From the IMG/VR virus record IMGVR_UViG_3300028498_000018: a DNA stretch of 64,000 bases, one strand, 5' to 3'. Under the pieces are notes generated by a model. It searched no databases. It worked only from the letters and a program-made list of their open reading frames with translations, and was not told the origin of the DNA. A program made the translations under genes and the position numbers. This document shows positions 13,705-64,000 of the stretch, piece by piece (position 1 is the stretch's first letter; every line of letters starts with the position of its first letter). Origin of the DNA: an uncultured virus (IMG/VR IMGVR_UViG_3300028498_000018). Lineage: Duplodnaviria; Heunggongvirae; Uroviricota; Caudoviricetes.

Positions 13705-13718
13705 CACGTGTGGCTCAG

Positions 13719-14107: not shown

Positions 14108-14125
14108 TTTTTCCCCCGGTTGTAG

Positions 14126-14251: not shown

Positions 14252-14697
14252 TTTGTACCCTCCCAAGCGCAGGAATAATGGTTGCCGTCAGGCTTTCTAA
14301 AGTACACCCCGGCAGCAGGCGTGACTCCGAACTCCTTACCAACGATCAGCCACAAGTCTGCGAGAGGTTTGTGGGCCATGCTATCTGTTGCGTATCGCCC
14401 ATCGACAAACAAATTCAAATCAATGGCGAGGCGCTTCGTGTGCAGCGAGTTTGCTATACCGACACCAGCATGAGCGTAGGACAAAGCGACAGATATAGGT
14501 CGGAAGGACTCGCCGAACGTGACCTTATATCGGCCTGCCGGTTCAATCATAGGGATCTGCGTCTGAAAGTAAGCGAGGGCCTGTATGCACCGTTGCTGGT
14601 ATGCGCCCAGCCCGTCTCCCGAGGGGGACTCATCCACAAAAAACCCGACGGACAGAGCTGCTGCAGCAGCAGCGAGTTTGGCCCTTATGTTGTCCAC
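14248..14697 (-). CDS. endolysin, M15-family peptidase
   Basis: GESFR, NSLHTKRLAIDLNLF, DGNHYS; GTG start at 14697 inferred. Confidence 0.85.
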   Translation of the reverse strand: MDNIRAKLAAAAAALSVGFFVDESPSGDGLGAYQQRCIQALAYFQTQIPMIEPAGRYKVTFGESFRPISVALSYAHAGVGIANSLHTKRLAIDLNLFVDGRYATDSMAHKPLADLWLIVGKEFGVTPAAGVYFRKPDGNHYSCAWEGTK

Positions 14698-14699
14698 GG

Positions 14700-15077
14700 C
14701 TATAGTCCAGTCCCGCTGAGAGCACGGGTCGCTACCACCACGCCTATCACCGCGGCGATGGCGCTGGCGATACTGGCCACCCATGTTGCCACCTTCAAGA
14801 ACCCTCTGAATACAACCGTGGCTGTCACTAAGTCCTCGGTGTTGGCCTGTATCTTTTTGGTCAGCATCGTGTTCTCTTTAACAAGAGTGCTGAGACCTTC
14901 GTGGCCTGTCTCTAGTTTAGATACGCGGGAGGCCAGCGCCTCATGCGTTGCCCCCAGCACGTACATGTCGAGCGGTGACGCGGATTGTAAATGAGCGCTG
15001 AGAGGAGACTCACGGCTTGCGCCGCCTAAGTTCTCCTCTACTTTAATACTGTCGGCCCCTTTAGCTGATACGCGCAT
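14700..15077 (-). CDS. holin-like membrane protein (coiled coil + C-terminal TM)
   Basis: GGGGGA RBS before ATG 15077; hydrophobic C-terminus; directly upstream of endolysin. Confidence 0.55.
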   Translation of the reverse strand: MRVSAKGADSIKVEENLGGASRESPLSAHLQSASPLDMYVLGATHEALASRVSKLETGHEGLSTLVKENTMLTKKIQANTEDLVTATVVFRGFLKVATWVASIASAIAAVIGVVVATRALSGTGL

Positions 15078-15099
15078 ATCCCCCCCTATTAAATATGTG

Positions 15100-16254: not shown

Positions 16255-16502
16255 GCCTTTAATAGGTTGATTGCTTGGTCAAGCGCGGACGATAGCCGCG
16301 CAATGTCAGTGCCTGAGCGCAGAACACAGTCTGCATCGAGAGGGGCTGAGCCACAAGGGGTCAGCAGTGCAGGCTTCTCTGTCACGGTAGTGATGCAGGC
16401 GATACGCACCGGCACCTCGACGGTCTGGTACCGCACCGTGGCAGGGCAGCCAGCAAGCGGCAGCAACAGAGTGGCGGACAGACATGCCCGCAAGATACTC
16501 AT
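16245..16502 (-). CDS. o-spanin (Rz1-like lipoprotein)
   Basis: Lipobox LAGC, TVEVPVRIAC, terminal LLKACQ; follows i-spanin. Confidence 0.8.
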   Translation of the reverse strand: MSILRACLSATLLLPLAGCPATVRYQTVEVPVRIACITTVTEKPALLTPCGSAPLDADCVLRSGTDIARLSSALDQAINLLKACQ

Positions 16503-16885
16503 CGCAACACCTGCCGGATGGCGTCTTTAGTTCGCTCGCACTCAGTGGCCCCGGTCAATACCACGCGGTCAATGTACTTGATCCGCTCGACCTCGACGAT
16601 CTTGCGCTTGGCATTTACTCCTTGCGCTGCCTCCACTTGCTTCTTCAGCTTAGTGTCGTCCGCCTTGATCTTGACCATGTAACCCTCGATCTGCTTAAAT
16701 GCTTCGGCGTTTTGGTTGAGTTGGTCGGTGGCTTTTTGCAGCACTGGCATTAGCTTCGCCCGTACTTCGGCGCGCCCTGCCTCACGATACGGCTCGGCCA
16801 CATAGTGCCGCCACGCGAATGCTCCTCCCCCCATGAACAAAAGAACGCCAAGCAGCCCGACTGCGTATCGAATCAGCAGACTCAT
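16499..16885 (-). CDS. i-spanin (Rz-like)
   Basis: N-terminal TM, coiled coil, C-terminal Cys; coupled to o-spanin. Confidence 0.75.
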   Translation of the reverse strand: MSLLIRYAVGLLGVLLFMGGGAFAWRHYVAEPYREAGRAEVRAKLMPVLQKATDQLNQNAEAFKQIEGYMVKIKADDTKLKKQVEAAQGVNAKRKIVEVERIKYIDRVVLTGATECERTKDAIRQVLR

Positions 16886-29664: not shown

Positions 29665-30078
29665 TTAGGCCGTGATGTACATATTGCCTTCGGCTACCAC
29701 GAACTCCTCCGCGCACCCCTCTGGCTTGCACTCTTCGATTACGATAGGCGCACAATCAGGCTTCATCCTCTGCACGCTAGCTGCACCGAACCTCGGACGC
29801 GGGATCGACATCCGCATCGAGTGGATTGGCTTGTTACAGTTGTAGACCGTACCGATGTACCAGCCCGGGTGAGCCTCGACCAGGTCATCGTCGATGATGA
29901 AGCACATCTTGCCGCCATCCTCCTGCCGAGCTGGGTAATTTGCCAACAAAGTGCGCGCCCCCTCTCGGTGGATTGAAAGCTTCATGTTGCTTGGATTGTA
30001 CCCCTCGACAACTCGTCGGCTCGGCAACTCGACACAGATCGGGCCGGAGGTGCGAGTTATTTCGATGAATGGTTTCAT
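29665..30078 (-). CDS. hypothetical structural protein
   Basis: TAATG-coupled; heads the fibre gene block. Confidence 0.6.
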   Translation of the reverse strand: MKPFIEITRTSGPICVELPSRRVVEGYNPSNMKLSIHREGARTLLANYPARQEDGGKMCFIIDDDLVEAHPGWYIGTVYNCNKPIHSMRMSIPRPRFGAASVQRMKPDCAPIVIEECKPEGCAEEFVVAEGNMYITA

Positions 30079-33000
30079 TATTTAATCCAGGGGAGTAAAC
30101 GCCCCACAATTTTTGCGTCCGCGTTGGGCAAGTGAACTAGGAGACCCGAAGATCTAGCGTCGAGTTTCTTTTGTACCCCAAGAATATCAGTTGCGCTGAT
30201 ATTCTTCTCTGGGTACTTGGCGTTATATGCCTGGGTAGCTGTGTTGGCCCCGTCGATCATGGCCTCTGTGTCTCCGCCCTGGCTAGCCTGGTGGAAAGCG
30301 TACCGGTATATCTCCATGATGACCCGGCGATCAGCCACCGCACCTGACACTAGGCTTTTCTCCGCCTGTACTTTCTCTGAGGCCAATGCTACCTTGGACG
30401 GACGGAAACCAAGCGCCTGAAAGAGGGCTTCGACCGTCGTGATCTGGTTGTCGTCAGCCAGTAGCGGGGTCCCGTCTTTCTGCGACGGGGGCGTGGAGTA
30501 CAGTGAATACCCCTTGATTACGTTTGCCAGTCCGGCGGGTAGCCCGCCTCCGCTAACGGCTTGTTTGGCTGCTTCAGCTGTCCCGACCACGCCGACCTTG
30601 TCCATGAAAGCCCCGCCTACCTTAGCGTACGACTCCATTGCTCCGAACGTTGGGCCAGCCAGCTGCTTGAGATAGTCAACAGGTTCATTCGTTGGTTTAC
30701 CAAACGGATCTTGGAGGATCAAGTTGTTGAGCGTGACGCGCTTGGACAACCCTGCCCCGAGTATGCCGTGGTACATATAGTTGCCCACGTCTTCTCCGTA
30801 GGATTCGTAGATCGAATTCTTGATGCGGACCGCTACCGGCAGGTTAGCCTGCTCGTCGTCTCCCTCGCCCATCGCTGAAGCGGCCAGCCAAGCCATCAGA
30901 GCAAACGGAGCCGTGATCATGAATGGCAAACCTGATGCCCCCGCCGCAACAGCGTGCATGGCGATGACACCCGTCAGGTGCTTCATGGCGTAAGCCTTCT
31001 CCTCTTTTGAAGACTGGCTATCAGCGATGCTGCGCACATCTCGGTACATACTGCTAGCAACGGCAAAGCCGTAGCTCTTCAGCTGGAGCATAACTCGCCC
31101 GCCCGGGGTGCGCTGCAGGTACGACTTGTTGGATGCCGAGTTGTCAGGGTTCGAGCGGTATCGAATTTCAGTGGCTATATCAAGCGCCAGCTCGCTCGTC
31201 GTGGTGCCGCGCCTCTTAGCCTCGACTGCGGTGCTCGGGGCCTCCATCGCCGCACGGTAAGCAGCGATCATCGCACCCATGTTGGTGATGTTCTCAGACA
31301 CTGACATCATGTATCCGCCGGCCTTCATAACCTTGCGGCCGATGTAGCTCGACTCGTTGGTGATGTCCATCACTTCATGGGTTTCCGCCGCGCCAATCAC
31401 GTTGTACTTTTCAGCGTGCTCGAACACTTTCCGCACGTCAGCAGGCAGGCCGTCGAACCCCGGGTTACCGTTCTTGTTGTTCTGTCGCAACTGGTATAGG
31501 GCTCGGGACGCATCAAGCATGGCCGTAGGCAGCTTTGCTGAGCCGCTGGTGCCATACCTAGCACCAATCTCTGCCGTAGTCATGATGGACCCGCCGATGG
31601 CGTTCACTACGGACGACGACACGTTGGCAAACATCGTGTGGATGAAACCAATTTTGTTGATCGTGTTTGCTGCGGTGTTGAGCGGGTTATCCTGCGCCGA
31701 ATAACTGATTGCCTTCGTGAAGATGTCGAGCGCCTGCTGTGCCCGGGGGGTATCGTATTTAGGATCATTCTGGTTGATGTTGACGAACCCCTTCGCGTCA
31801 CTGAGAGCTCCGAGGATGTCCCTCTGGAAAGTGATGTTAGCGATGGCTGTGGCCCCGCTGCGTAGCACCCGTAGGTTCGCCTGCAGCATATCCTCGCTGG
31901 CACCCGCAATAAACTTCCGTGTCAAAGCGTTCTTGTTCGCGTCGGTCACGAGGGTTGATTCGTACACCTCCCGCATACGCTGCTCTATAGTGACGAGCTC
32001 ATCAGCAGCAAGTCCTTTGGTCTTCAGGCCATCGACGACCCGCTGAATAAATTCTTCTTTCGCCACGCCAAGTTTCGGGCGCTCATGCTGCTGGTAAAGG
32101 CTGACGTTAGAGATGACCTCGTTAGGGTACTTCTCTCGCAACTGTTTGTTGATAGCCTCTGCTTCGGTGCGAGTTGTGTGCCGGCCGAACCAAAGCTGCT
32201 CTCCGTCTTTGGAAGCCTTGACAGACGTCACCCAGCTGCCGTGTCGGTCCTGGGCAAAGTACACCCCGAGCCCCGAGTTCCTGATTTCATCAGCGATCTT
32301 CTTGGCGTCTGTGGCGAGCGCTCCGTATTTAAGCATCGCTTGTTCTGTGGCGTTCGCCTGCTCCAGCCGCTGCTCCTGCATCATCGTGCGCGACACCTGG
32401 TACACCTTTCGCTCCGCAGATGTAGGCGTGAGAGCATCCCACATGTTTTGCAGCTTGGTCTCTTCCGGGGTTTTAGGAGCCCGGTATTTTGGCTCTGCCC
32501 TGTCAGGAGAGAACTGGAGCTGAGTGGCTGTGGACATCAGCTCGTTGGCCACTCGGTGGTTTAGCTTGCCGTACCCGTACAGGTCCGCTAGGCGAACGTT
32601 AATGTCCTTCATCGCGCCGTTGATGGCGGCCCCGCGTAGGGCGACCTGATCGATCACTTTGTTCAGTAGGTTCACGCCCGTGTTAGGCCCCTCCTTCGGG
32701 GTGAACAGGCTCTTCATCAGGTACCCGATGTCACGCATTGCTGTGATGTACAGAGCCTTGCCTTCGATCCAATCGAGAGCGTTGCGCACCCCTGTCTTGG
32801 AGGCAACCTCTTTGAACGTCGTGGTGATCGCGCCTGTAACTCCTTTGTGGTCGCCCGTGCGAATAGCCGTAGCAAGACGGTCGTTGATACCCGTCTCGAA
32901 GTCCCCGATCAGCTCAAGGCTTTTTTGGGTGGCAGCATCTGCATTGTGCTCGTTCTGGTTGGCGTTTGTCTGAGCCCCCATCGGCACGCCCTTCAGCGTG

Positions 33001-36000
33001 AAGGAGCCGTCGAACTTAGGAATCCGATACATCTTGAGGTTCGACGGGGGCGCGAGTAGCAACTCAGCAGCGCGGAAGCTGCTGCCTAGAAGGTTGTTGA
33101 CCCCGACAATGCTGAGGATCGCGTGAATCATCCTGCTGAACAGAGTCTGTGGTGTACCCGGGTCCTGCACGCGGGCGAGCTGCTTCTGGAACTCTTTGTT
33201 CGAGAACATCTCAGACACGAATTCAGCCACGTTCGTGAAGGCGTACTCGCCCTTGTTTATCTCCGGGCTAGCCTGGGCAACCTTGTAGATTCGGATCATC
33301 TCCGCAACTGCTGCACGTTGCAGTTCAGTCTGTGGGTTCACAATAGCGTTCAGCGTCGCCGCGTGGGTGATCTCGTGCAAGACGACGTGCTCGTTGAGGC
33401 CGTTCGTGTTGTGGATTAAGATTGACACCGTGTTGGGAGAGTACGTCCCGAGCACATTCGGTTTATTGAATTCAGAGCCCGCAGCAAACCGGATCTTTGT
33501 TCCGCCCAGACCGACGAGCAGGAGCCGAGCAGCCACCTCACGCACCAACGGGGTGCTGCCGTTCTTCGACAGGTCAGTCAGTACCGCGATCACATTGTTT
33601 TGGCGGATCGCTTCTATCGCCGCTGGTGTCAGCGGAGCCCGCAAGAATGCAGGAATCCTAGATGGGTTCAGGTTCGCAACATAGTCGCCTTCGTTGAGTT
33701 CGAGTGGGGGCTCACCAAGGTGAGTAGTCCTCAATGTTTCCGCTAGGGCTTTAAGCTCCGGTGTGGCTTCGACCTGGATGTTGTCGGTGACTGGGGTGTT
33801 CTCTAGTACGCCGGCCGCTTGCGTGCTGGTGGTTTCTTGTGTACCGGTGGCTTTTTCTTGGGCATCATTCTGAGCGGTCCCTTCAGGGGTTTGCTGAGCG
33901 GTCGACTGTGTAGCCTCTGCTTTTGAGTTCGGCGATAATTCTTTCAATCTCTTGAGCAGATAGGCTGTCGTTGGTACCGGCTGAGCCGGTATCGGCTTTG
34001 GGGGCTCGGACGCCACCGCCGGGGCGCTGGTCGTTTCTTTATTGGTGGCCTGTTTGACCTTGTCTTTGAATTCGTTAATTCGTTGATCAAGGGCTATCAC
34101 ATCGGGAAACTCCTCGCCGAGTTTCAGGGAGGCTTTATCTCGGGCAACGATCACGGCATCCAGCGCTTTATCGGTCGGAGCCGACCCGTTCATGGCGCGG
34201 TCTATCCCCTTAATGATTTCTTGCCGTTTGGCGCGTGCCTCCTCCGCCGCGGCTGTCGCCTTGGTCGCTGCCTTATCCGCTGCTTTTTTCTCGGCCTCGA
34301 CCGCTTTATCAGCACGCGCTTTTTTCTCGGCTTCGATAGCGTCGGTCTGAGTCTTTATTTTTAATCCCCGTGCGGCGGCTTCATCTTCTGTTTTTTTTGT
34401 TTTCTCCGCCTCCTTCATCCGGTTTTCCGCGTCTGCGATTTTATTTCTCAGCCCGTACACTTGATCTCGGTGTGCCTGGCGTGCGACGACTGCTGGGTTG
34501 GAGGGGTCATTACCCGCCACTTTGGGTAGGTTACTAATAGCGTATTCGATGTCTCTACGTGCCTTTGTCAGGTCGTACTTATCGGTCGTACTATCCAGTT
34601 TATGTGCCTCAACCTTTGCGACTATGTCGGCAGTGCCCGCTTTTATCTTATCAGCGGTAACATCATTTTGAGTTGGTTCTGGCGGCTTCGGCGGCTCAGG
34701 AATAGCAGATGGTGCCGATGTGGCTGCCTTTGGAGGCTCGGGCGGACTAGGCATCTTGCCGCGTACGGCATCTGCGACGTCAAACCTCTCGCGTATCCCG
34801 CTCACCTCGGCGGTGATGCGGTCGGCCTCCGCCCCAAATTCGGTAGTCGACAGAAACGGCTTAGAGTCGAGCAGGTCTTTCAAAGAATCAGATAGCTTGG
34901 CGCTGTCCGCTCGTTGTGAGTCATCGCCCTTTTCACTAACCAAAGTGTTTAGTTTTTTCACCCCGGCTGTGACCCGGGCCAAGGCTTCAGTTTTTTTTGT
35001 GCTCGCTTCCGCGGGCTCGACTGGCATCTGGGCCATCTGTTTTAATTGGGTGTCAAAGGCTTCTTTGACGGCGGTCGTCTGTTCGGGGGTTGGCGGCACA
35101 GCCGGGTCCGGGAACGACTTAGCTATGTAGGCGTCAAGCGCTTTCGTGTATGGCTCACTCTGGGCGATACCCGCTATAGGGTCGACTCCGCTCGCCGCGT
35201 CCTGACGAAGCTTAGCCAGCGCCGTAGGGGTCGACACGATCTCGTTTGCAACCCTCATGCCCTCAGCTTGAGCGCCGTTGGTCACAGCTGCTGCAGCGTC
35301 CTGCGCGTCCGAGGCAGTCTGTTGGGTCTGCTGCTGGGTCTGCTGTTCGGCTTCGGCCTGAGCGGCCTGAGCAGCCTTGGCTACCTCTTCATCTTGAGTG
35401 CGGATCGTATTGGCTACTTCAGTGTTTGCCGTGTTCTGTCGGCGCTCTGACACGCTGTCGCTGATGTTGCCGACGACCTTACCACCTGACCCCATAACAG
35501 CACCAAGGGCGGCAGCTGCGGGGTTAAATGTCGGGGTGTAGGGTAAACCCTGAGCATAGTCAGCACCCGCGGCTCCAGCTCCAGCAACCAGACCTTCTTC
35601 GAGGCCCTGGGTAGTACCCTCAAATAGCACCCCGCCCGCTTTTTTAGCCGCCCCACCTGCGGTGAGTTTAGCCGCTGCCCCCGCCGCGCCAGCTTCAACA
35701 GCCCCGACTGCTCCGGCTGCTCCGACCCCACCAGCTCTGCTTGCGACCGCAGCTTCGAGGTCTCGTGTTAAAGCGTCTCCAGTTTTTTTGCCGAATGCGC
35801 CGAATGCTTTACCTGTTGCTTTTTCTAGTCCGGGGGCAATCAACGTGCCCGCAGCCGTGATCCCACCACCCATCTCGGCAGCACGAAAACGAGCGTTGTT
35901 AATTTCTTCTTCGGTGGACTTTGGGTTCCGCTGTAACAGTATGCGTTCCGCGTCATCGGCTGCTTGGCCCGCTTCGGATAACCCAAACCCCACCGCTGCT

Positions 36001-36908
36001 GGTACATTCCCAGCCGCGCCCGCTAGCAGTTTCTGGGCAACGTTACCCGACTGGCCATACTTGGCTAGGGCCGTGCCAAATTTTGCCACCGTCTCCAGTT
36101 GGCGGGCTGTCTTGATCCCCATCCCAACAACGCCACTTGGCCCAACAATGCCTCCAGCCAGTTGGCTCATCATGTACCCCGGAGCATCCCCCAGAGCTTT
36201 AAACATCCCGCCCACGTCACCGTCGTCAATCGCTTTCGAGAACGCGGCCTGGGCCTTAACCTGTTCCTTTGTGCCGGCAGCCGCACCAATGGCCTGGCCA
36301 CCTTTACTGACGGCTGTGGTAAGTTTGAGCGCGAGACTGTCTCGGTCGACCCCAGCAAGGGTTAATATGCCACTTGCAGTGTCCGCCACCGACGAGATAA
36401 TACTACCGCCAAAGGCCCCTGCGGCCCCCCCTGCATTGCGGAAGAAGCCGGGTTGTTCTTTCTCAAGCCGTTTGAATTCAGACTGCGCATCACCTGTTGC
36501 TTGGGCTAGCTTGACGACTTCGTTCTCGAACCCTTTGGTGCCTGCCAGTGACGAAGAGAACTGCTTGATGTAGTCAAGGCGGAACTTGGCTCGCTCAGTG
36601 TCGTTTAGGGTCCTGCCGTCAGCCTGCTCGCGCAGGGCCAGCTTTTCACCGATGGTGGTGTCAAGCTTAGTTACTTTGTCGCGTATAGCCTGAGCAGCTA
36701 CAAAGTTCTGCACGTCGTCGGCCTGTTTTATCACCTTCGCTGCGTGGGTGTCGACAGCCGCAGCTTGTTGCTGAGCTAGGCGGGCCTCCGCCTGGTGTTG
36801 GCGTGCGAGCGCGATCGCCTGGGCAAATTGAGACGGACCGCTTGGCGCTGCGGAGCCAAACGGGTTTACGGCCGGCGTAGACACATCTATGTTGAACGGA
36901 TCGGCCAC
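30078..36908 (-). CDS. large internal (ejected) polyvalent virion protein with zincin metallopeptidase and PLxRFG-like domain
   Basis: 2276 aa, no Cys; VVLHEITHAA...EYAFTNVAEFVSE; YFAQDRHGSW resembles YFPLxRFG; QALGFRP. Confidence 0.8.
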   Translation of the reverse strand: MADPFNIDVSTPAVNPFGSAAPSGPSQFAQAIALARQHQAEARLAQQQAAAVDTHAAKVIKQADDVQNFVAAQAIRDKVTKLDTTIGEKLALREQADGRTLNDTERAKFRLDYIKQFSSSLAGTKGFENEVVKLAQATGDAQSEFKRLEKEQPGFFRNAGGAAGAFGGSIISSVADTASGILTLAGVDRDSLALKLTTAVSKGGQAIGAAAGTKEQVKAQAAFSKAIDDGDVGGMFKALGDAPGYMMSQLAGGIVGPSGVVGMGIKTARQLETVAKFGTALAKYGQSGNVAQKLLAGAAGNVPAAVGFGLSEAGQAADDAERILLQRNPKSTEEEINNARFRAAEMGGGITAAGTLIAPGLEKATGKAFGAFGKKTGDALTRDLEAAVASRAGGVGAAGAVGAVEAGAAGAAAKLTAGGAAKKAGGVLFEGTTQGLEEGLVAGAGAAGADYAQGLPYTPTFNPAAAALGAVMGSGGKVVGNISDSVSERRQNTANTEVANTIRTQDEEVAKAAQAAQAEAEQQTQQQTQQTASDAQDAAAAVTNGAQAEGMRVANEIVSTPTALAKLRQDAASGVDPIAGIAQSEPYTKALDAYIAKSFPDPAVPPTPEQTTAVKEAFDTQLKQMAQMPVEPAEASTKKTEALARVTAGVKKLNTLVSEKGDDSQRADSAKLSDSLKDLLDSKPFLSTTEFGAEADRITAEVSGIRERFDVADAVRGKMPSPPEPPKAATSAPSAIPEPPKPPEPTQNDVTADKIKAGTADIVAKVEAHKLDSTTDKYDLTKARRDIEYAISNLPKVAGNDPSNPAVVARQAHRDQVYGLRNKIADAENRMKEAEKTKKTEDEAAARGLKIKTQTDAIEAEKKARADKAVEAEKKAADKAATKATAAAEEARAKRQEIIKGIDRAMNGSAPTDKALDAVIVARDKASLKLGEEFPDVIALDQRINEFKDKVKQATNKETTSAPAVASEPPKPIPAQPVPTTAYLLKRLKELSPNSKAEATQSTAQQTPEGTAQNDAQEKATGTQETTSTQAAGVLENTPVTDNIQVEATPELKALAETLRTTHLGEPPLELNEGDYVANLNPSRIPAFLRAPLTPAAIEAIRQNNVIAVLTDLSKNGSTPLVREVAARLLLVGLGGTKIRFAAGSEFNKPNVLGTYSPNTVSILIHNTNGLNEHVVLHEITHAATLNAIVNPQTELQRAAVAEMIRIYKVAQASPEINKGEYAFTNVAEFVSEMFSNKEFQKQLARVQDPGTPQTLFSRMIHAILSIVGVNNLLGSSFRAAELLLAPPSNLKMYRIPKFDGSFTLKGVPMGAQTNANQNEHNADAATQKSLELIGDFETGINDRLATAIRTGDHKGVTGAITTTFKEVASKTGVRNALDWIEGKALYITAMRDIGYLMKSLFTPKEGPNTGVNLLNKVIDQVALRGAAINGAMKDINVRLADLYGYGKLNHRVANELMSTATQLQFSPDRAEPKYRAPKTPEETKLQNMWDALTPTSAERKVYQVSRTMMQEQRLEQANATEQAMLKYGALATDAKKIADEIRNSGLGVYFAQDRHGSWVTSVKASKDGEQLWFGRHTTRTEAEAINKQLREKYPNEVISNVSLYQQHERPKLGVAKEEFIQRVVDGLKTKGLAADELVTIEQRMREVYESTLVTDANKNALTRKFIAGASEDMLQANLRVLRSGATAIANITFQRDILGALSDAKGFVNINQNDPKYDTPRAQQALDIFTKAISYSAQDNPLNTAANTINKIGFIHTMFANVSSSVVNAIGGSIMTTAEIGARYGTSGSAKLPTAMLDASRALYQLRQNNKNGNPGFDGLPADVRKVFEHAEKYNVIGAAETHEVMDITNESSYIGRKVMKAGGYMMSVSENITNMGAMIAAYRAAMEAPSTAVEAKRRGTTTSELALDIATEIRYRSNPDNSASNKSYLQRTPGGRVMLQLKSYGFAVASSMYRDVRSIADSQSSKEEKAYAMKHLTGVIAMHAVAAGASGLPFMITAPFALMAWLAASAMGEGDDEQANLPVAVRIKNSIYESYGEDVGNYMYHGILGAGLSKRVTLNNLILQDPFGKPTNEPVDYLKQLAGPTFGAMESYAKVGGAFMDKVGVVGTAEAAKQAVSGGGLPAGLANVIKGYSLYSTPPSQKDGTPLLADDNQITTVEALFQALGFRPSKVALASEKVQAEKSLVSGAVADRRVIMEIYRYAFHQASQGGDTEAMIDGANTATQAYNAKYPEKNISATDILGVQKKLDARSSGLLVHLPNADAKIVGRLLPWIK

Positions 36909-48596: not shown

Positions 48597-48621
48597 AAAA
48601 AAATACCCGCTTGTAGCGGGT
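48597..48621 (-). terminator. intrinsic terminator
   Basis: Minus strand ACCCGCT-aca-AGCGGGT-ATTTTTTT. Confidence 0.75.
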
Positions 48622-48650: not shown

Positions 48651-48920
48651 TTATTTAATCTCGGTGCCACACAGCCAGTACCGTTCTCCGATAGTCAAAG
48701 CAACCGAGAGCGCGACGAGGAATCCGCCGAGGATCGTGGCCGGTACGCCTCCGAAGATTGCAGCGGCAACGCCGAACCCTGCGATCCCAACTCTGACTGC
48801 CATGCAGTATTTACAGGTGGAACCCCAGAGGAAATCCATGATCCTAACGAGCGGCGACTTGTCCGAAGCCACCACGGAAGCAAACCAGATGTTGGAGACA
48901 TAGCAGTACCAGTTTTTCAT
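48651..48920 (-). CDS. small membrane protein with CxxC motif
   Basis: STCKYCMAVR followed by two hydrophobic helices; ATGA-coupled to GNAT gene. Confidence 0.65.
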   Translation of the reverse strand: MKNWYCYVSNIWFASVVASDKSPLVRIMDFLWGSTCKYCMAVRVGIAGFGVAAAIFGGVPATILGGFLVALSVALTIGERYWLCGTEIK

Positions 48921-49414
48921 TGGGAGTCTTTCGTTGATTGGAGGACCTTGCTCTTGGTTTCCTCTATCTCCTCGGGAGAGAATTCTTTCTTGATAGAGTA
49001 TCGGGTGGAGGTTATCCCCACCTTACGGTACCCGATTTTTTCATAGAAAGACACTAGCGGGTTGTCCCGGTGAATGCTGCCGGTCATCGCTGCCAGCCCC
49101 ATATCGAGCATCAGCCCGCGAATGTAGAACCGGATTTCTTTAAACGTGCCCTCACCTCGGTGACCCTCTTCAATTTGGATCTCTGCGGTGAACATGGCGC
49201 TGGGGTCGTTGGGGTCTGCTTGGACGCTAACGAACCCAATCGTCTGCCCGCCGCCAGTCACAATCAAGTGTATATCGTATGCGGATGTGATGTCCATCCA
49301 CTGCGCTTCATCAAGGACTGGCTCACCCCACCGTTCGTAGTAGGGGGCCATGTTGTTGGTTGATAACTTGTAGCAGTATTGCTTGGCTTGTTCAGTAGCT
49401 TTAACTAATTTCAT
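48917..49414 (-). CDS. GNAT-family acetyltransferase
   Basis: EIQIEEGHRGEG, N-P..SFYEKIGY. Confidence 0.8.
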   Translation of the reverse strand: MKLVKATEQAKQYCYKLSTNNMAPYYERWGEPVLDEAQWMDITSAYDIHLIVTGGGQTIGFVSVQADPNDPSAMFTAEIQIEEGHRGEGTFKEIRFYIRGLMLDMGLAAMTGSIHRDNPLVSFYEKIGYRKVGITSTRYSIKKEFSPEEIEETKSKVLQSTKDSQ

Positions 49415-57691: not shown

Positions 57692-57850
57692 TGGAAAAAT
57701 TTTGGGGTCTGGGTTTGCACCGGGGGCTTGGAAAAATTTTGGGGGTCTGGGGATAGCCGGGGGCGACGGAGCTGTCGTGTGGAAGAGGTAGGGGTAAGAG
57801 GGACACCCCCGCCCCCCTATGCCGCGCCGACTCCCCACACCCCCCGCCCT
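57692..57850. repeat. direct repeat and G/C-run tract, candidate packaging/terminus region
   Basis: TGGAAAAATTTTGGGG(G)TCTGGG at 57692 and 57729; abrupt switch from G-runs to C-runs near 57800. Confidence 0.55.
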
Positions 57851-58163
57851 CTTCATCGTCGCCGCTCCACACACGATCGACCTGCTTCATGTTAGTAAGG
57901 ACTCACTATGATAAGCCTATGCAAAGCTTGACAAGCCTCAAGGCATAGGGAACGGGTACATTTAGAGGGTTTTAGTGGCCATAGGAGGCTCGCCACGCGA
58001 TTCTGTGGAGGGTCAAGCTACCTACCCACCACCCGAAAACCCGAAACGTTGGCAGGGCGCTATTACGCGGCTCCTACGATCTGCCATAGGTGAAGCCATG
58101 CGGCATAGGCATAAGGTTTGAAGCATAGGGGAACGGCCACGCTATGCGATCAAGGCATAACGT

Positions 58164-58747
58164 CGGAAAACCGCATGTAATAAGGGTTCGAACGTCGGAA
58201 AACTGACGTGATGAAGACATCGCGCGCCACGTTTCAAGGGTCCGGGCGTCAAACCAACCTCAAAATGTTGCACCGCAGCACAAAATCAGGCAAAAACCAA
58301 GGTTGTAAGGAAAGTTCAAACAACCCTAAAACCTCTGTAACAGCGGAAAACTCCGCTCCATGCGGTTTTCCGTTTTCTGTTACGCGATGTTACAAAATGT
58401 TGTAACAACAAAACTACTGTGCGTTAACCCAGCGTTTCACTCGGAAAACCGCATCCAGCAGTCACAAATTAGACTACCTTATTATTATTATTTGCTCTGT
58501 TACATGTTACAAACAAAATGTACTGGAGTGTCAGGGTTCGTTTTGTTTTGTTGGTCGTTCCCTCCTTCCATCCTCCTAAAACACCGACGAAAACTTTGTA
58601 ACAAGAAAACTCGACTTGTTTTGACGTAAGCCATTGAAACATAAGGGAAATTTTGTTACGCGGGTTTGTAACATCGTGAAACAAAGCGCCGAAAACCGCA
58701 TCCACACGTGAGAATTTTGTTACAAAACCAAGCGGCACTTTGTAACA
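58164..58747. repeat. iteron-like array
   Basis: 11 TGTWACR at 58336, 58378, 58388, 58401, 58498, 58505, 58597, 58654, 58667, 58718, 58741; CGGAAAACCGCAT at 58164, 58360 (inverted), 58442, 58689 (1 mismatch). Confidence 0.8.
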
Positions 58748-58850
58748 GGCTGGAAGCCCCTAAAATCAATGGTCCCGGTGCTGAACAGCTCAAGAATCGT
58801 TTAGGACCACGTAGAAACCACGCCAAAATCCACGTTTATTTTCGTTTCTA

Positions 58851-58892
58851 AGGGTTTCCCCTATCAAATCCATCGTTTTGCCGTGAGACATT
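58851..58892 (+). promoter_or_regulatory. early promoter 1 (palindromic box class)
   Basis: AGGGTTTCCCCT-24 bp-GACATT. Confidence 0.6.
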
Positions 58893-58934
58893 ACATACAT
58901 CGGCTCTAAGCCACAACACGAAAGCGAAACGATC

Positions 58935-59288
58935 ATGCAAAAGTTCATCCTCAATATCGGTCACGACACACGTTCAGGCAAGCTGCTTAATGCCGCACGC
59001 ATCGCCAAAATCGTTGAGTTGTTCGTGGGTTTCGAAGTCACACAGAAACGCGTGGTTGTTGGCGAATACAACGGCAAAGCGGAGAAAACCAGCGTCATCT
59101 TTTGTCAGACCAAGAACTATGCCGGGAGCGTAGTGTTCAACGCTATATCAGGCGAATGTGATCAGGAGTGTATAGCGGTCGTAGAGCTGGGGAGCCGCGA
59201 TAACTTCGGCTCGACAACCGCCGTGGGTGATCTGTACGGGCACAATCCTAGCGGGTTATCGTTTGACTGGGCACATTTCAGAATCTAG
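58935..59288 (+). CDS. early hypothetical protein
   Basis: First gene after promoter; LNIG...GEY..E...QECIAV. Confidence 0.7.
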   Translation: MQKFILNIGHDTRSGKLLNAARIAKIVELFVGFEVTQKRVVVGEYNGKAEKTSVIFCQTKNYAGSVVFNAISGECDQECIAVVELGSRDNFGSTTAVGDLYGHNPSGLSFDWAHFRI

Positions 59289-59290
59289 TC

Positions 59291-59361
59291 AGAATCTTGT
59301 TTGTATGCCCTACAACGGGCATACAGGCGGCGATTTTGCCGGTTAACGAAAGAATCATATG
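59291..59361 (+). ncRNA. structured intergenic element, copy 1
   Basis: TGTATGCCC-tacaac-GGGCATACA then CGGCGA-tt-TTGCCG then AACGAAAG. Confidence 0.6.
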
Positions 59362-59490
59362 TGCGCAAACGATGTTGCTACTTGCTACGCCGTCGTCTTC
59401 GGCGTAGCGTTCCTCCTCGCAAGCTTCGGGGCGACCGTCGGGATTGTGTGGTGTATCTGCGACATCCTGAAAAGCTGTCGCGGCCAATAG
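59359..59490 (+). CDS. small membrane protein (43 aa, not in ORF track)
   Basis: MCANDVATCYAVVFGVAFLLASFGATVGIVWCICDILKSCRGQ*; fills the space between two structured elements. Confidence 0.5.
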   Translation: MCANDVATCYAVVFGVAFLLASFGATVGIVWCICDILKSCRGQ

Positions 59491-59493
59491 AAC

Positions 59494-59566
59494 AGAATTC
59501 TGTCCGTGCGCCTACATGCTGGGCGCACAGGCGGCGATTTTGCCGGTTAACGAAAGAACCATCATG
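59494..59566 (+). ncRNA. structured intergenic element, copy 2
   Basis: GTGCGCCTA-catgc-TGGGCGCAC then CGGCGA-tt-TTGCCG then AACGAAAG. Confidence 0.6.
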
Positions 59567-59905
59567 GCCAACGACATCACAACCACAACGCCGCTTCCTC
59601 ATCTAGACCGTGACAACAAACGGGCGATCATCGCGTTCAGGACATCAAAAGCATCGGGAGGCGGACTATACGCGGCCGCGTCCGTGTATTTTCAAGACGG
59701 TCAATTCATCACGTTTGAAATATTCGGAGATTTTCGGGTCAACGTGAAGCGTGCGCCTGAACTGCGGGCGACGGCGAAGAACATCGCAAACCTTCATGCC
59801 GAAGCGTTCAACGCGGGCGCACAGGCGGCACTTATTGAACAGGCCAACGCTTTTTATGCGAACAAGGCGCAGTCAGACGCGAATCGTGCAAGGGTTGCCG
59901 CGTAG
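59564..59905 (+). CDS. early hypothetical protein
   Basis: Start MANDIT after element copy 2. Confidence 0.7.
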   Translation: MANDITTTTPLPHLDRDNKRAIIAFRTSKASGGGLYAAASVYFQDGQFITFEIFGDFRVNVKRAPELRATAKNIANLHAEAFNAGAQAALIEQANAFYANKAQSDANRARVAA

Positions 59906-59945
59906 GGTTTGCCCTAATGACAACACCGGGTCAACGCGCTACTGT
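59904..59945 (+). promoter_or_regulatory. early promoter 2 (palindromic box class)
   Basis: AGGGTTTGCCCT-24 bp-TACTGT. Confidence 0.55.
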
Positions 59946-59983
59946 TGACCCCTACACCACACACCACCAGCGGAGAATCTACT

Positions 59984-60259
59984 ATGAACATCATTAGCAA
60001 CAACACACCACGCGACCTTATTTCATTCGCCGATCTGCCGGCGGACGCACAGGCGGAGTTTGATTACGTCGGCACGGACGAACGCTACGTCTGCCGATTT
60101 GCCCGATATAAGGGCAACTTCTACGACGTGGGCGACATCGCGTGCGCACCGGACAGTTTGCCGGGATGGCACGGCATACAGAACGAGTCCTACTTCAGCG
60201 GCGTGTTGTTTCACCTGTTGCCAAATGAGCGGGTCATCGTCGGCGCTTATTTCAACTAA
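59984..60259 (+). CDS. early hypothetical protein
   Basis: GGAG RBS in repeat; MNIISNNTPRDL...GWHG...SYFSGVL. Confidence 0.75.
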   Translation: MNIISNNTPRDLISFADLPADAQAEFDYVGTDERYVCRFARYKGNFYDVGDIACAPDSLPGWHGIQNESYFSGVLFHLLPNERVIVGAYFN

Positions 60260-60287
60260 TCCACACAACACCAGCGGAGAATCTACT

Positions 60288-60632
60288 ATGAACGAAAACA
60301 TCGGTTACCACACGCGCCTATACACCGACAACTCGCAGAAGGTTGTAGGGGGAAGCTTCGGCGGACGGATCGACTCAGAAACCGTGGAGCGCCTAACCAA
60401 GGCGCACTTCTCGGTAGCCATCAAACCTAGCGGCACGGTTGTTTTCGTGGACAAACAAGGTAGGGAAGTGTGGTTGTATCTAACTGTTGACGCGGGATCG
60501 ACGACACAGGGGCGTGCGCTGGCTGTGCAGCACCGCAAGACGGTCGAAGCAGCTCAAGAGCAGCAACGAGTGCGGATCGATGAGCTGCTTGATTCGTTAA
60601 GCCCCGAAGAGATCATTGCTAGGCTGTCGTAA
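60288..60632 (+). CDS. early hypothetical protein
   Basis: GGAG RBS in repeat; MNENIGYH. Confidence 0.75.
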   Translation: MNENIGYHTRLYTDNSQKVVGGSFGGRIDSETVERLTKAHFSVAIKPSGTVVFVDKQGREVWLYLTVDAGSTTQGRALAVQHRKTVEAAQEQQRVRIDELLDSLSPEEIIARLS

Positions 60633-60667
60633 TCCCTACGCCACACACCACCAGCGGAGAATCTACC

Positions 60668-61072
60668 ATGAGAACACACGAACTAATCAACAAGGCGGCG
60701 GACTTGATCGAGGCAACGGGCTGGACGCAGGGCGCGGGCGCTCGCGATGCGTACGGGAACTGTTGTTTCGTTAACCCGGGAGCTAATGACCCCGAACCCG
60801 TTTGTTTCTGCGCAAGTGGCGCGATAACCCGCGTGTTCGCTATCGAGCGGCAAGGGTTCACCGCAGGCGGACAGAAACTAGAGTCTCGCGCCCACAAAGC
60901 GCTGAACGCGGCAACGAGTTATCTCGACATCATCGCGTTCAACGACGCGCCGGGGCGCTCCGCCGATGAGGTCGTGGCGGTCCTACGCACGACGGCGGCC
61001 AAGCTTGCGGCGGAGGAAGAGGCGGTGGACGCAGCGCTACTGACTGAATTGCAACAGGGCACTACACAGTGA
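60668..61072 (+). CDS. DUF6197-like hypothetical protein
   Basis: AADLIE..GWTQG, FCASGAI, FNDAPGR..EVV..LR. Confidence 0.7.
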   Translation: MRTHELINKAADLIEATGWTQGAGARDAYGNCCFVNPGANDPEPVCFCASGAITRVFAIERQGFTAGGQKLESRAHKALNAATSYLDIIAFNDAPGRSADEVVAVLRTTAAKLAAEEEAVDAALLTELQQGTTQ

Positions 61073-61287
61073 AGCCTAGAAACGCAAGCACAATCAGCGA
61101 CGGGGCACTGCGGACTCTCCTTAGAGGGTTTGCGCTGCTCCTTAATGTGGAGATAACAGAGACCCCGGATAAGGTCGTTGTAATCGAAACGCATCTGCGG
61201 CGGGGCGTCATAGTCACGCTAACGGCGCAGCGACGGGGCAACGTGTGGGACATCGAGGTTGTAGTCGTGCCCCTGAAAGACATCTAG
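61069..61287 (+). CDS. early hypothetical protein
   Basis: GTGA overlap. Confidence 0.55.
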   Translation: MKPRNASTISDGALRTLLRGFALLLNVEITETPDKVVVIETHLRRGVIVTLTAQRRGNVWDIEVVVVPLKDI

Positions 61288-61356
61288 AGTTCTGTCCATG
61301 TGCCCGCATCGGGTACATCGGCGGTAATTTTACCGGGCAACGAAAGGCTGATCATG
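61286..61356 (+). ncRNA. structured intergenic element, copy 3
   Basis: ATGTGCCCG-cat-CGGGTACAT then CGGTAA-tt-TTACCG then AACGAAAG. Confidence 0.6.
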
Positions 61357-61524
61357 TGGACGATATACGATAGAAAAGAGGGCTGTTATGTTGGCAAACC
61401 CTACGGCAACCGGCGGCGGGCACAGTCTCGCGCTGAACGACTGGACCTGATATATGGGGCCTATCGCTACAACGTGCGGGCACTTACGAAACCCGAAACG
61501 AGCGAGGCAAGCTATGTTGACTGA
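61354..61524 (+). CDS. early hypothetical protein
   Basis: MWTIYDRK...AERLDLIYGAYRY. Confidence 0.65.
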   Translation: MWTIYDRKEGCYVGKPYGNRRRAQSRAERLDLIYGAYRYNVRALTKPETSEASYVD

Positions 61525-61663
61525 GACGCAACGACGCAAACCCTATGTAAAGCCCATTACATATAACGGCGTGTTAGTCGGTTGGCGCGTATACGTGCGC
61601 CATGCAAATAGCCTGTTTGGCGCATCATTTCTTAAACATATCTGGAAAGAACCAACAAAATGA
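61514..61663 (+). CDS. early hypothetical protein
   Basis: GAGG RBS, MLTETQRRK; ATGA-coupled to the next gene. Confidence 0.45.
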   Translation: MLTETQRRKPYVKPITYNGVLVGWRVYVRHANSLFGASFLKHIWKEPTK

Positions 61664-62375
61664 AAACCAACAAAGTTCAACAGTGGACCGCAAAACTAAA
61701 CAGCGGATTTTTAGATGGCGTATTTTGGACGCCAACGGATACCGCTTCATTGAAGCGAGCAACAAACAATTCAAACCGGACGCTAGAAGTCACGGCGCAA
61801 GACATAGAGGGCCTGATCGAGGCGGCCAACGAGCTGGACAAACNNNNNNNNNNNNNNNNNNNNNNNNNNNNNNNNNNNNNNNNNNNNNNNNNNNNNNNNN
61901 NNNNNNNNNNNNNNNNNNNNNNNNNNNNNNNNNNNNNNNNNNNGTCACGGCGCAAGACATAGAGGGCCTGATCGAGGCGGCCAACGAGCTGGACAAACCG
62001 CTGCCGGTCAACGGACACCACGAAGACAAAGCGTTCAAATTTTGGCGCGACACCGTTTTAAAACCCGACGGCGGACTGCGTAGGACGGCGGAGGTTAAGA
62101 GCCTCAGCACGGCGGAGCTGAAGGTCATCCTTGCGTATCTTGAGTGGCACGCGGGGAAAAAATACTTGGTTGCCGACGAACAAGTCAATCGCCCGCATCA
62201 TGCGTTCAACGGGTTACATGACGCCACCAGCGAAGCGAGATACCGGCATAGCGGAGGGTTAACGCGTGACGTGGTCCCCGTGTGGCGCATGATCGTTCCG
62301 GGCGTGGGTTATCTGGACTATACCTACGGCGGCACGCTGGCGATTCTTCAGGTGGTACTAACCGAAGCAGAATAA
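61660..62375 (+). CDS. early hypothetical protein split by a spurious scaffold gap (186 aa once collapsed)
   Basis: Removing the 100 N and one copy of the 55-nt duplicate gives a continuous 561-nt frame. Confidence 0.65.
61789..61998. other. assembly gap (100 N) flanked by an exact 55-nt duplicate
   Basis: 61789-61843 = 61944-61998. Confidence 0.9.
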
Positions 62376-62387
62376 TTTTAAGGCTTG

Positions 62388-62429
62388 CGGGTTTTCCCTA
62401 ATGTAATTCATTGAGAACCCGCAGACAAT
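62388..62429 (+). promoter_or_regulatory. early promoter 3 (palindromic box class)
   Basis: CGGGTTTTCCCT-24 bp-GACAAT. Confidence 0.6.
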
Positions 62430-62459
62430 AGAGTTATCAACACAAACAGGACAACGATC

Positions 62460-62627
62460 ATGACAACGGAAAGAACGATTCAAGGAGCATGGCGCGTCTC
62501 GGACGTGATCGACGGCCAGCTCGAAACCCGGCAGTATTTTGGGTACACGAAACGCGAAGCTGTCGAAGCATTTAAGGTGGTCATTGCTGACGCACAATCT
62601 AAAATCATCAGGGAGCAACGCGCATGA
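62460..62627 (+). CDS. early hypothetical protein (55 aa, not in ORF track)
   Basis: AGGA RBS; MTTERTIQGAWRVSDVIDGQLETRQYFGYTKREAV. Confidence 0.65.
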   Translation: MTTERTIQGAWRVSDVIDGQLETRQYFGYTKREAVEAFKVVIADAQSKIIREQRA

Positions 62628-62920
62628 ACACAACAGAATTCGGCGGACGCGTTGAGTCCGTGTATGACCCTGAACTCCACGACGGAGACCTTGAGAACGT
62701 ACATGCTATTTGTCTGGACTTCGATGGCAGCATCATCGACTCTGATGATGACCTAGAGTTCATGGAGTTCGGCGATTACTTCAGCGTCTTCCTGCACTTG
62801 CGCGACGGCGGCATGGACTGCGTCGGCAACTTCAAAACCCTGAAGGAAGCGCAAGCTTACCGCGACGGGCACGCAACCAATTACATCAATGGACAACGCA
62901 ATGAACACCAAAATATTTGA
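62624..62920 (+). CDS. acidic early hypothetical protein
   Basis: GGAG RBS, ATGA overlap. Confidence 0.65.
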   Translation: MNTTEFGGRVESVYDPELHDGDLENVHAICLDFDGSIIDSDDDLEFMEFGDYFSVFLHLRDGGMDCVGNFKTLKEAQAYRDGHATNYINGQRNEHQNI

Positions 62921-63164
62921 CAAGTACGGGCGAATCACCCGGCACGACACGGACCACCAGCTGCTGCGCGACTATGCGCGGGTCAACATTGTAAACACGG
63001 TTGAGATCATAGCCAACGGCACCGGCACCGCGACGGTCGTGGTGGCGTACGCCAACGGGGCAACGGGCACATCCCAGAATCTGACACTGGCAGACGCAAA
63101 CCAGTTCTGCGTCGGCCGCAACGGGTTCCCGCACGCAATAGTTCGCGCAGAGGTAACAGTATGA
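62901..63164 (+). CDS. early hypothetical protein
   Basis: GGA RBS before MNTKIF. Confidence 0.6.
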   Translation: MNTKIFDKYGRITRHDTDHQLLRDYARVNIVNTVEIIANGTGTATVVVAYANGATGTSQNLTLADANQFCVGRNGFPHAIVRAEVTV

Positions 63165-63406
63165 CGAGGGCCCAAAAAATAAACGTGTGGCTCGCTGCCG
63201 TTGAGGCGGTGAACTACACCTCAGTGCCGTACGGCATAAAAATCGCGGTCGCAGTTGATGTTGCCAAGGCGCTTAGGTTTCAAGCGTACCGAGCGCCGCT
63301 TGGGTCTCAAGCAGCGGAGTGTGTCGAACTGTACGCGGTTCGGGGCATTTGCCCGATCAAACGAATTGCGCACACTTCATTTGTCGTAAACCCTTCGAGG
63401 AACTAA
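63161..63406 (+). CDS. early hypothetical protein
   Basis: GAGG RBS, ATGA overlap. Confidence 0.6.
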   Translation: MTRAQKINVWLAAVEAVNYTSVPYGIKIAVAVDVAKALRFQAYRAPLGSQAAECVELYAVRGICPIKRIAHTSFVVNPSRN

Positions 63407-63407
63407 T

Positions 63408-63845
63408 ATGTCAATCAAATTTTTATCGCTCTGGGCGGACGTACCAGAGCAGACCATCGAAGCGGGCCGACGTTTGTCCACACTTGGCCTGCAATGCGAT
63501 GCCTTTGGGCACATTAACTATGCCGCGACACCATCACGGCACTATGCCGGGCACTCAGCGGACGGTGGCGGCGTTCAACAGCACTCGTGCGGCGCGGACT
63601 ATCCCTATGTGATCGGGCAACGTGAGACGGGCCTAGAAGACGGCACCGTGTACCACTACGTGGTCGGCGGACGCGCAGGAAGCACGCCTAACATCCTCTT
63701 CAGCACTTTGGAGCGGGCCCGGCAGTTCGTTGGGTTCCTGAAGGCGAGTGACATACTGGACGCACAGGACGCATCAGACCGACGCGCAGGTAAACATATT
63801 GCGGCGGCGATTCAGCTCGCGGCAGTTCGCGCTCTGGGGCACTGA
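63408..63845 (+). CDS. early hypothetical protein
   Basis: GAGG RBS. Confidence 0.65.
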   Translation: MSIKFLSLWADVPEQTIEAGRRLSTLGLQCDAFGHINYAATPSRHYAGHSADGGGVQQHSCGADYPYVIGQRETGLEDGTVYHYVVGGRAGSTPNILFSTLERARQFVGFLKASDILDAQDASDRRAGKHIAAAIQLAAVRALGH

Positions 63846-63846
63846 G

Positions 63847-64000
63847 GTGATCAAAGCAATAACCGCATACATCACAGAAGACGAGCATATTTTCTCTACT
63901 CATAAGGAGGCAGAGGAGCACGAGACTGAGATGGCGGACGTGTCACTGCGAGACGCCATCACTTCTTTTTTGTCGGCCAACTACCGCGAAGGGAGCTTGG
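63847..64000 (+). CDS. hypothetical protein (partial, runs off the window)
   Basis: GTG-IKAITAYITEDEHIFSTHKEAEEHE open to the window end. Confidence 0.55.
   Translation, partial: MIKAITAYITEDEHIFSTHKEAEEHETEMADVSLRDAITSFLSANYREGSL

Follow-up and report, generated by a model that had tools for sequence, protein, structure and literature searches.

A stop-anchored RNA hairpin repeated between early genes of an uncultured podovirus-like phage: a candidate mRNA processing or stability element

Control of early genes by ribonuclease III (RNase III) is known from the N-leader and sib hairpins of the lambda type, and bacterial operons carry intercistronic stabiliser hairpins, REP and BIME. According to PMC3867540, the early precursor transcript of phage T7, about 7000 nt long, holds five processing signals; the idealised Escherichia coli RNase III substrate is a helix of 22 bp, or two turns, and a target with loops, bulges or mismatches tends to be cut on one strand only, which leaves 3' hairpins that stabilise the RNA. 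In T4-type phages, the stop-to-start cassettes called PeSLs contain stem-loops and mediate gene shuffling, as described in PMC2839356. Here we analyse IMG/VR record IMGVR_UViG_3300028498_000018, a 64-kb stretch of DNA (hereafter, the window) that represents most of the genome of a novel, podovirus-like phage (56% GC), and in which three copies of a structured RNA element stand between small genes on the plus strand. This structured RNA repeat is real and well supported, and it is a new sequence family; most likely it is an ordinary kind of phage mRNA processing or stability element.

A hairpin of 21 pairs at three gene junctions

A preliminary description of this DNA had placed three elements between an upstream TAG and the next ATG, and reading the window locates all three on the plus strand at the positions given there (c1, c2 and c3, Table 1). 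As RNA, each copy has a minimum-energy fold that consists of one hairpin with 21 pairs, arranged as 7+5+9 bp, with a one-base bulge on the 3' side in all copies and a 1x1 mismatch in c2 and c3, in place of which c1 has a U-A pair. The fold energies of c1, c2 and c3 are -28.3, -30.4 and -26.3 kcal/mol, respectively (z -4.6, -3.7 and -3.0 versus shuffles). The upper 9 bp form a hairpin, P1, that had been reported to pair fully with a different sequence in each copy, and to be extended by pairing between YTGTY and GGCGG; both statements are correct. The fold is nevertheless larger than was described: the hairpins seen at that time stand, while seven further pairs (CAGAAUU/GAUUUUG in c1 and c2, UAGAGUU/AAUUUUA in c3) had been missed. 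Sequence conservation between copies is seen in the lower and middle arms, while P1 and the loops (3 to 6 nt) vary.

The position of the hairpin is as constant as its shape. It starts on the upstream stop codon or 1 to 2 nt past it (0 to 5 nt from the first base of the stop in all three copies), and its 3' end lies 20 to 21 nt before the next AUG, from which it is separated by a conserved unpaired leader, CCGG..AACGAAAG, present in all copies. All three genes upstream of an element end in TAG, versus 13 of the 69 open reading frames (ORFs) overall. The core motif GGCGGYRATTTTRCCGG is found exactly three times in the window at 0 mismatches, and five times (versus 1.15 expected) if up to 3 mismatches are tolerated. 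Two of the copies, c1 and c2, stand on either side of a single 43-codon gene as direct repeats of 42 nt (93% identical, 204 nt apart). A covariance model trained on the three copies themselves (model R1) gives them scores of 93.6 (c1), 94.6 (c2) and 84.6 (c3) bits.

Covariation had also been claimed for the element, and it is borne out by the alignment of the copies: in a 20-pair consensus, all 60 cells are paired and none is broken. Of the five pairs that have changed on both sides, two belong to the lower stem of c3 and three to P1, with one in every copy; five more consensus pairs have changed on one side, to or from G-U. Only one of 500 column shuffles equals the observed pairing, and slid registers pair 37 to 45% of the cells. 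Moreover, a strict hairpin scan of both strands of the window (at least 21 pairs, at most 2 defects) returned four hairpins, three of which are these elements, versus 0.17 +/- 0.37 in 30 dinucleotide shuffles.

Each copy contains five G-U pairs, three of them invariant, which become A-C mismatches on the complementary strand. The minus strand folds worse (z -3.6, -2.4 and -0.3 for c1, c2 and c3), and with DNA parameters the fold of the plus strand is restricted to P1 and P2, a small alternative hairpin that overlaps the 3' arm of the long one. For these three reasons, the twelve lower pairs exist only in the sense RNA. The preference for RNA that the preliminary description had drawn from G-U pairs is thus upheld for the sense strand, whereas single-stranded DNA collapses to P1 and P2.

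P2 itself had been said to show compensatory change. All 15 of its cells are paired, with one double and one single change, both in c3, and one of the c3 changes falls in the base that is bulged, and hence unpaired, in the long hairpin. This single compensatory event is a weak sign that P2 may itself be under selection. The proposal that two folds compete for GGCGG is right insofar as P2 is built from the 3' arm of the long hairpin, which makes the two mutually exclusive, but they are not balanced as in a switch: the equilibrium probability of the lower stem is 0.95 to 0.99, and that of P2 is 0.003 to 0.03.

The preliminary description did not recognise the family, and neither did Rfam 15, which gave no match at the gathering score in the whole window. 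In the region 57800-62000, at E<=10, it gave only two chance-level rows (14.9 and 17.7 bits, versus gathering scores of 300 and 50). Known ribozymes are rejected in the same way, by the lack of an Rfam match in the window or around the elements. The elements had no match in INPHARED (blastn in distant mode, region 58800-61800), and no close relative of the phage was found in that database. In IMG/VR, the 17-mer motif had at least 119 single matches, which we attribute to chance, none among the matches listed having the GAAAG or ACGAAAG box; a 22-base pattern and a two-arm pattern both had 0 matches there, and a single-protein TerL search of IMG/VR found 0 relatives. In GTDB genomes, a pattern search produced seven loci, also chance matches, with R1 scores of at most 17.9 bits versus 85 to 95 for true copies. 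TerL relatives at 36 to 87% identity are found in metagenomes, and no copy of the element was detected by R1 in eight JGI/ENA metagenome loci taken from the TerL alignment, the best non-training matches (11 to 12 bits) lying within the window itself.

One of these metagenomic relatives, L120 (61% TerL identity), has the same early layout with another repeated intercistronic module, a perfect 14-bp hairpin of different sequence followed by a CA-rich leader and GGAG. A CA-rich leader of this kind also precedes three other early genes of the window. On account of the L120 module and of this shared leader, joints made of a hairpin plus a leader are a habit of the phage group, of which the hairpin described here is a lineage-specific form.

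Proposed cleavage by RNase III and its alternatives

Given that no RNA polymerase family was detected among the 73 ORFs scanned against PHROGs, in a window that may be short of the whole genome, the host polymerase presumably transcribes the early genes into a polycistronic message. The reading that we put first, tentatively and with slightly less than even confidence, is that the three elements are intercistronic punctuation hairpins of this message, cut by the host RNase III in such a way that the upstream product ends in P1 (3' end) and the downstream product begins with P2 (5' end). Among the functions that the preliminary description had listed, a processing or stabilising site is the one that fits best, by the geometry of the T7 early hairpins (compared in the last section), with cleavage itself proposed by analogy.

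The process could be as follows. The three elements would punctuate the polycistronic early mRNA made by the host RNA polymerase. Host RNase III would recognise the helix, the 21 pairs of which fit the 22-bp, two-turn idealised substrate as given in PMC3867540. The cut would fall near the irregular centre of the helix, at the 1x1 mismatch and the bulge, with some 9 to 10 bp between it and the terminal loop, as it does at the early sites of T7. P1, with its 9 GC-rich bp, would remain at the 3' end of the upstream message and shield it from 3' exonucleases, while the freed 3' arm would refold into P2 at the new 5' end of the downstream message, just before the ribosome-binding leader, where it could guard that message from 5'-end-dependent decay. 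The two folds previously noted would therefore be the states before and after the cut, rather than the positions of a regulatory switch. In addition, the conserved arms and leader could be natural crossover points for the swapping of small early genes. When the hypothetical cleavage products were modelled, P1 stayed at the 3' end in all three cases, and P2 or a register variant formed at the 5' end with probabilities of 0.49, 0.59 and 1.00 for c1, c2 and c3, respectively. Such a cut, with both products capped, would explain why the helix keeps a fixed length of 21 bp despite loops of 3 to 6 nt, why the lower arms are conserved when P1 is free to vary, why P2 persists, and why the site lies just before the ribosome-binding leader.

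Several points weigh against cleavage. The helix is far more regular than the T7 sites with their 4x5 internal loop, and c1 lacks even the mismatch; on so regular a helix, RNase III might cleave the two strands and so make the message less stable, or it might be blocked by antideterminant base pairs. In the modelled products of c1 and c2, P2 reaches a probability of only about 0.5 to 0.6, and its support comes down to one compensatory event, with an informal chance estimate of 0.15 to 0.2. The covariation comes from three paralogous copies in one genome, and no homologue of the element was found in any database searched, which makes a phylogenetic test of the R-scape type impossible. The T7 hairpins with which we compare the elements were folded here from the public record, which leaves RNase III sites unannotated; we take them to be sites R0.3 to R1.3, the positions of which reportedly go back to Dunn and Studier in 1983. 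Finally, a covariance model of the five T7 sites (model R2) recovers its five training sites and has no match in the window at E<=10, for which reason homology to the T7 sites is rejected.

A more elaborate form of the cleavage reading, which we hold to be doubtful, is a self-capping mark gated by translation: a ribosome on the stop codon would park the 3' arm in P2, and once the ribosome leaves, the helix would form, be cut, and both products would be capped. The element could then exemplify a general design rule of early operons in phages, undescribed so far and reached by convergent evolution, rather than a peculiarity of T7.

Four alternatives to cleavage are considered: an uncut stabiliser, an attenuator, a translation-coupled device and a DNA-level element. 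In the first, the hairpin would be a stabiliser or insulator that acts uncut, as a passive, REP-like barrier to 3' exonucleases and to RNase E scanning, so that decay is confined to one cistron. We regard this as unlikely, although it draws on the same structural evidence as the cut hairpin: a stability of -26 to -30 kcal/mol, a near-perfect helix without the large internal loop of T7, and a ribosome-binding site that is free in every modelled state would all suit it. However, the 9-bp P1 alone would already be an exonuclease barrier, and a passive role leaves unexplained the 21-pair stem of all copies in the face of variable loops, the conservation of the lower and middle arms as opposed to P1, and the P2 pairing kept in c3.

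A second possibility, quite improbable in our opinion, is that of a weak intrinsic terminator or attenuator, with a GC-rich stem, UUUU and an A-rich 5' arm, at which a partial stop would grade the expression of the early operon. Terminators called 'I-shaped' consist of an A-tract, a GC stem and a U tract, and the elements have an invariant AUUUU after a GC-rich stem, with AGAAU or AGAGU in the 5' arm as the A-tract partner. It also agrees with a partial stop that no canonical terminator was called on the plus strand anywhere in 57800-64000. Yet the U tract has only four U before GCC or ACC, and the stem is weak at its base, next to this tract (A-U and G-U pairs, a bulge). The pair beyond the U tract (columns 5-54) covaries from C-G to U-A, which a terminator does not need; the best terminator candidate of the window (48621-48605, minus strand), with a 7-bp stem and 7 T, looks different, as is also the case in L120; and three stops in the first 2.4 kb would starve the downstream genes. 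A full Rho-independent terminator, scanned for as a GC-rich stem directly followed by a U-rich tail (at least 5 of 8), is rejected: the consensus scan did not call the elements, and the U's of their tails (UUUUGCC or UUUUACC) are paired in the long hairpin.

Third, the element could be a device coupled to translation, or a switch: a ribosome at the TAG would melt the 5' arm, and P2, or the proximity of stop and leader, would control the next initiation. The close and constant distance between stop and hairpin points this way, as do the TAG stops of all three upstream genes and a leader in which direct reading finds only a weak Shine-Dalgarno-like GAAAG. Furthermore, P2 or a register variant becomes the best fold of c2 and c3, but only if the first 12 to 16 nt after the stop are blocked (18 nt in c1). 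Against this, modelling shows no consistent change from the long fold to P2 in how accessible positions -16 to +3 of the next gene are (0.69 to 0.52, 0.66 to 0.66 and 0.58 to 0.58), the ribosome-binding site is unpaired in both states, neither arm has a conserved pairing with it, and P2 is rare at equilibrium (0.3 to 3%). The translational switch of the preliminary description is therefore not retained, and we consider coupling in general very improbable.

Last, a DNA-level element (a recombination joint, a protein-binding site or a single-strand hairpin promoter, with an incidental RNA fold) might be suggested by the near-identical c1 and c2 repeats around one small gene, by the shuffling that PeSLs mediate in T4-type phages (PMC2839356) and by the folding of single-stranded DNA as two hairpins, but it is highly improbable, since the twelve lower pairs need G-U pairing and form on the sense strand only, the sequence of P1 differs between copies with its pairing kept, contrary to what a sequence-specific DNA-binding protein would require, no sigma-70 promoter lies inside the elements, c3 lacks the sigma-54-like GG-N10-GC, the scanned ORFs yielded no phage RNA polymerase for an N4-type hairpin promoter, and recombination at repeats is compatible with an RNA function and no replacement for it. 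Crossover at the c1 and c2 repeats, similar to that of T4 PeSLs, may well take place in addition to the RNA role.

Individual DNA elements were rejected as follows. No promoter-like site of the sigma-70 type is present inside any of the three elements. The sigma-54 consensus has GG at -24 and GC at -12 with fixed spacing; c1 and c2 read GGC-N8-TTGC, but c3 reads TTAC, in which the GC is lost. For a hairpin promoter of the N4 type, no phage RNA polymerase was detected among the 73 ORFs scanned against PHROGs, and neither the 2276-aa protein nor the 734-aa, immunoglobulin (Ig)-like protein of the window gives such a match. An integron attC site is rejected because direct reading against the consensus shows no GTTRRRY or RYYYAAC cores.

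The early region and the rest of the window

The features of the three junctions are collected in Table 1.

Table 1. Coordinates in the window of the elements, of their parts and of the neighbouring early genes and leaders
Feature	Position	Strand	Description
Gene A	58935..59288	+	First early gene, 117 aa, phrog_11722; upstream of c1
Element c1	59286..59361	+	TAG of gene A (59286-59288), long hairpin, leader, ATG of gene B (59359-59361)
c1 long hairpin	59290..59338	+	21-22 pairs; lower stem 59290-59296/59332-59338, bulge C59331, middle stem 59297-59301/59326-59330
c1 P1	59302-59310/59317-59325	+	Loop 59311-59316 (UACAAC)
c1 P2	59328..59341	+	CGGCG/UGCCG; alternative small hairpin, overlaps 3' arm of long hairpin
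c1 invariant leader box AACGAAAG	59345..59352	+	Weak Shine-Dalgarno-like, 6 nt before ATG
Gene B	59359..59490	+	43-aa hydrophobic peptide between c1 and c2
Element c2	59488..59566	+	TAG of gene B (59488-59490), long hairpin, leader, ATG of gene C (59564-59566)
c2 long hairpin	59493..59542	+	21 pairs; lower stem 59493-59499/59536-59542, bulge C59535, middle stem 59500-59504/59530-59534
c2 P1	59506-59514/59520-59528	+	Mismatch C59505/A59529 below P1; loop 59515-59519 (CAUGC)
c2 P2	59532..59545	+	Alternative small hairpin
Gene C	59564..59905	+	113 aa, without family; downstream of c2
Second repeated leader family CCACACACCACCAGCGGAGAATCTACYATG	59950-59987, 60254-60291, 60634-60671	+	87-100% identity, directly before three early genes
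Gene G	61069..61287	+	72 aa, upstream of c3
Element c3	61285..61356	+	TAG of gene G (61285-61287, itself paired), long hairpin, leader, ATG of gene H (61354-61356)
c3 long hairpin	61285..61332	+	21 pairs; lower stem 61285-61291/61326-61332, bulge U61325, middle stem 61292-61296/61320-61324
c3 P1	61298-61306/61310-61318	+	Mismatch C61297/C61319 below P1; loop 61307-61309 (CAU)
c3 P2	61322..61335	+	CGGUA/UACCG; alternative small hairpin, C-G to U-A and G-U to A-U versus c1 and c2
Gene H	61354..61524	+	56 aa, downstream of c3

The plus-strand genes at 1-16530 encode functions of replication and nucleotide metabolism (helicase, primase-helicase, ribonucleotide reductase, thymidylate synthase, exonuclease). 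The minus-strand genes at 17007-57890 encode the terminase, portal-like, internal virion, tail-spike and lysis proteins, as well as the 2276-aa protein. These late genes are parted from the plus-strand run of small genes, which begins with the ATG at 58935, by a non-coding region of 1 kb (57891-58934). This control region is rich in repeats: inverted repeats TGTTAC...GTAACA are found about five times, GCATAGG motifs are present at 57910-58160, and GGAAAACCGCAT occurs three times with a spacing of 247 to 278 bp. These repeats are probably operators, promoters or genome-end sequences.

Gene A has a weak, sub-threshold match to S-adenosylmethionine (S-AdoMet) lyase (E 0.0019, 18.6 bits versus a cut-off of 28), an activity that is the function of gene 0.3 in phage T3. 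Distant paralogues of gene A are present in L120. Past the TAG of gene A, its frame runs on for about 106 codons without a stop (59289-59606, plus strand), through c1, gene B (in another frame) and c2; we judge this to be an off-frame artefact of GC-rich sequence. The early region has a single nucleotide match in INPHARED: 156 nt of gene E (60297-60452, plus strand) are 72% identical to a hypothetical gene of BcepSauron, a jumbo phage of Burkholderia, which hints at a host in the Burkholderiales. The leader family CCACACACCACCAGCGGAGAATCTACYATG may be a CA-rich translation enhancer; its first copy is preceded by two small hairpins. Further downstream, a perfect 55-nt direct repeat (61789-61843 and 61944-61998, plus strand, 155 nt apart) lies within the ORF at 61602-62375 and suggests an internal duplication.

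In the late operon, a canonical intrinsic terminator is found at 48605-48621 (minus strand; 7-bp stem, 3-nt loop, 7 T), and a promoter-like site comes after it at 48586-48557. At 48918-48967 of the same strand, a small hairpin is followed by CAACGAAAGA and by an ATG that overlaps the upstream stop (ATGA); this site, which R1 matches with 11.1 bits, reuses the AACGAAAG box as a late-operon leader. Virion genes surround that of the 2276-aa protein (30078-36908, minus strand). The C-terminal third of the protein is similar to DarB-like antirestriction helicases, residues 1156-1298 match proteins of Achromobacter podophages and gp65 of Cellulophaga phage phi14:2, and for the N-terminal half the only leads, weak and below threshold, are to unnamed phage protein clusters, one of which is partly LPD22; no relative of this protein was found in the PDB. 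In another metagenomic relative, L123 (54% TerL identity), a 25-pair hairpin at 11407-11462 (plus strand), on the late-gene strand, may be another processing-type hairpin.

Comparison with known intercistronic hairpins

Like REP and BIME, the elements are stable hairpins placed after stop codons inside operons, where they could block 3' exonucleases. They differ from them in being phage-specific, in having three copies of fixed leader and 21-bp length, and in lacking the REP sequence signature. With the N-leader and sib hairpins and the nut sites of lambda, they share the presence of structured RNA in early phage transcripts near a ribosome-binding site. Unlike nut sites, however, their loops vary (UACAAC, CAUGC, CAU), direct reading against the consensus shows no boxA, and Rfam gives no match. 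Antitermination, another function that had been suggested for them, thus finds no positive evidence: a site of the N/boxB type is unlikely, and an identity with nut or put antiterminators is rejected, though no direct comparison with HK022 put was made.

The PeSLs of T4-type phages, as described in PMC2839356, are closer in arrangement. They are likewise repeated stop-to-start cassettes with a stem-loop, which end in a ribosome-binding site, stand before small orphan early genes and could serve as crossover points. In contrast, PeSLs hold a strong sigma-70 promoter and their stem-loops are terminators, whereas no sigma-70 promoter is found inside the present elements, and a 21-bp helix rich in G-U pairs takes the place of a short GC clamp.

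The early RNase III sites of T7 (R0.3, R0.5, R1, R1.1 and R1.3) are the closest in geometry. Both kinds of hairpin occur in several copies between the cistrons of an early polycistron made by the host polymerase, both are about 45 to 50 nt long and extend from on or near a stop codon to about 19 to 21 nt before an AUG, and an upper stem of 9 to 10 bp over an irregularity may be shared as well. After T7 gene 0.4, the hairpin starts on the UGA itself (position 1) and leaves 19 nt to the next AUG; the one after gene 0.7 has its start some 5 nt further on, at about position 6 of the centroid fold; and in both, the 9- to 10-bp upper stem stands above the 4x5 internal loop. All three elements of the window likewise lie between cistrons on the sense strand and have a two-turn helix. 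There, the 9-bp P1 is followed by the 1x1 mismatch (c2 and c3) or the U-A pair (c1), and the 1-nt bulge comes 5 bp lower, so that the bulge and a mismatch that c1 lacks are all that corresponds to the internal loop of T7. In addition, T7 conserves the upper stem, whereas here the lower and middle stems are conserved and P1 varies.

The likeness to the T7 sites is thus one of design, not of descent: the element is an analogue, not a homologue. If the hairpins are cut and cap both products, one long early transcript would be turned into separately stabilised single-gene messages, the stop-anchored two-turn hairpin would become a feature for the annotation of early operons in metagenomic phages, and such hairpins would be compact, portable insulators for synthetic operons. 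Phages far from T7 and wholly dependent on the host polymerase would then share the T7 trick.

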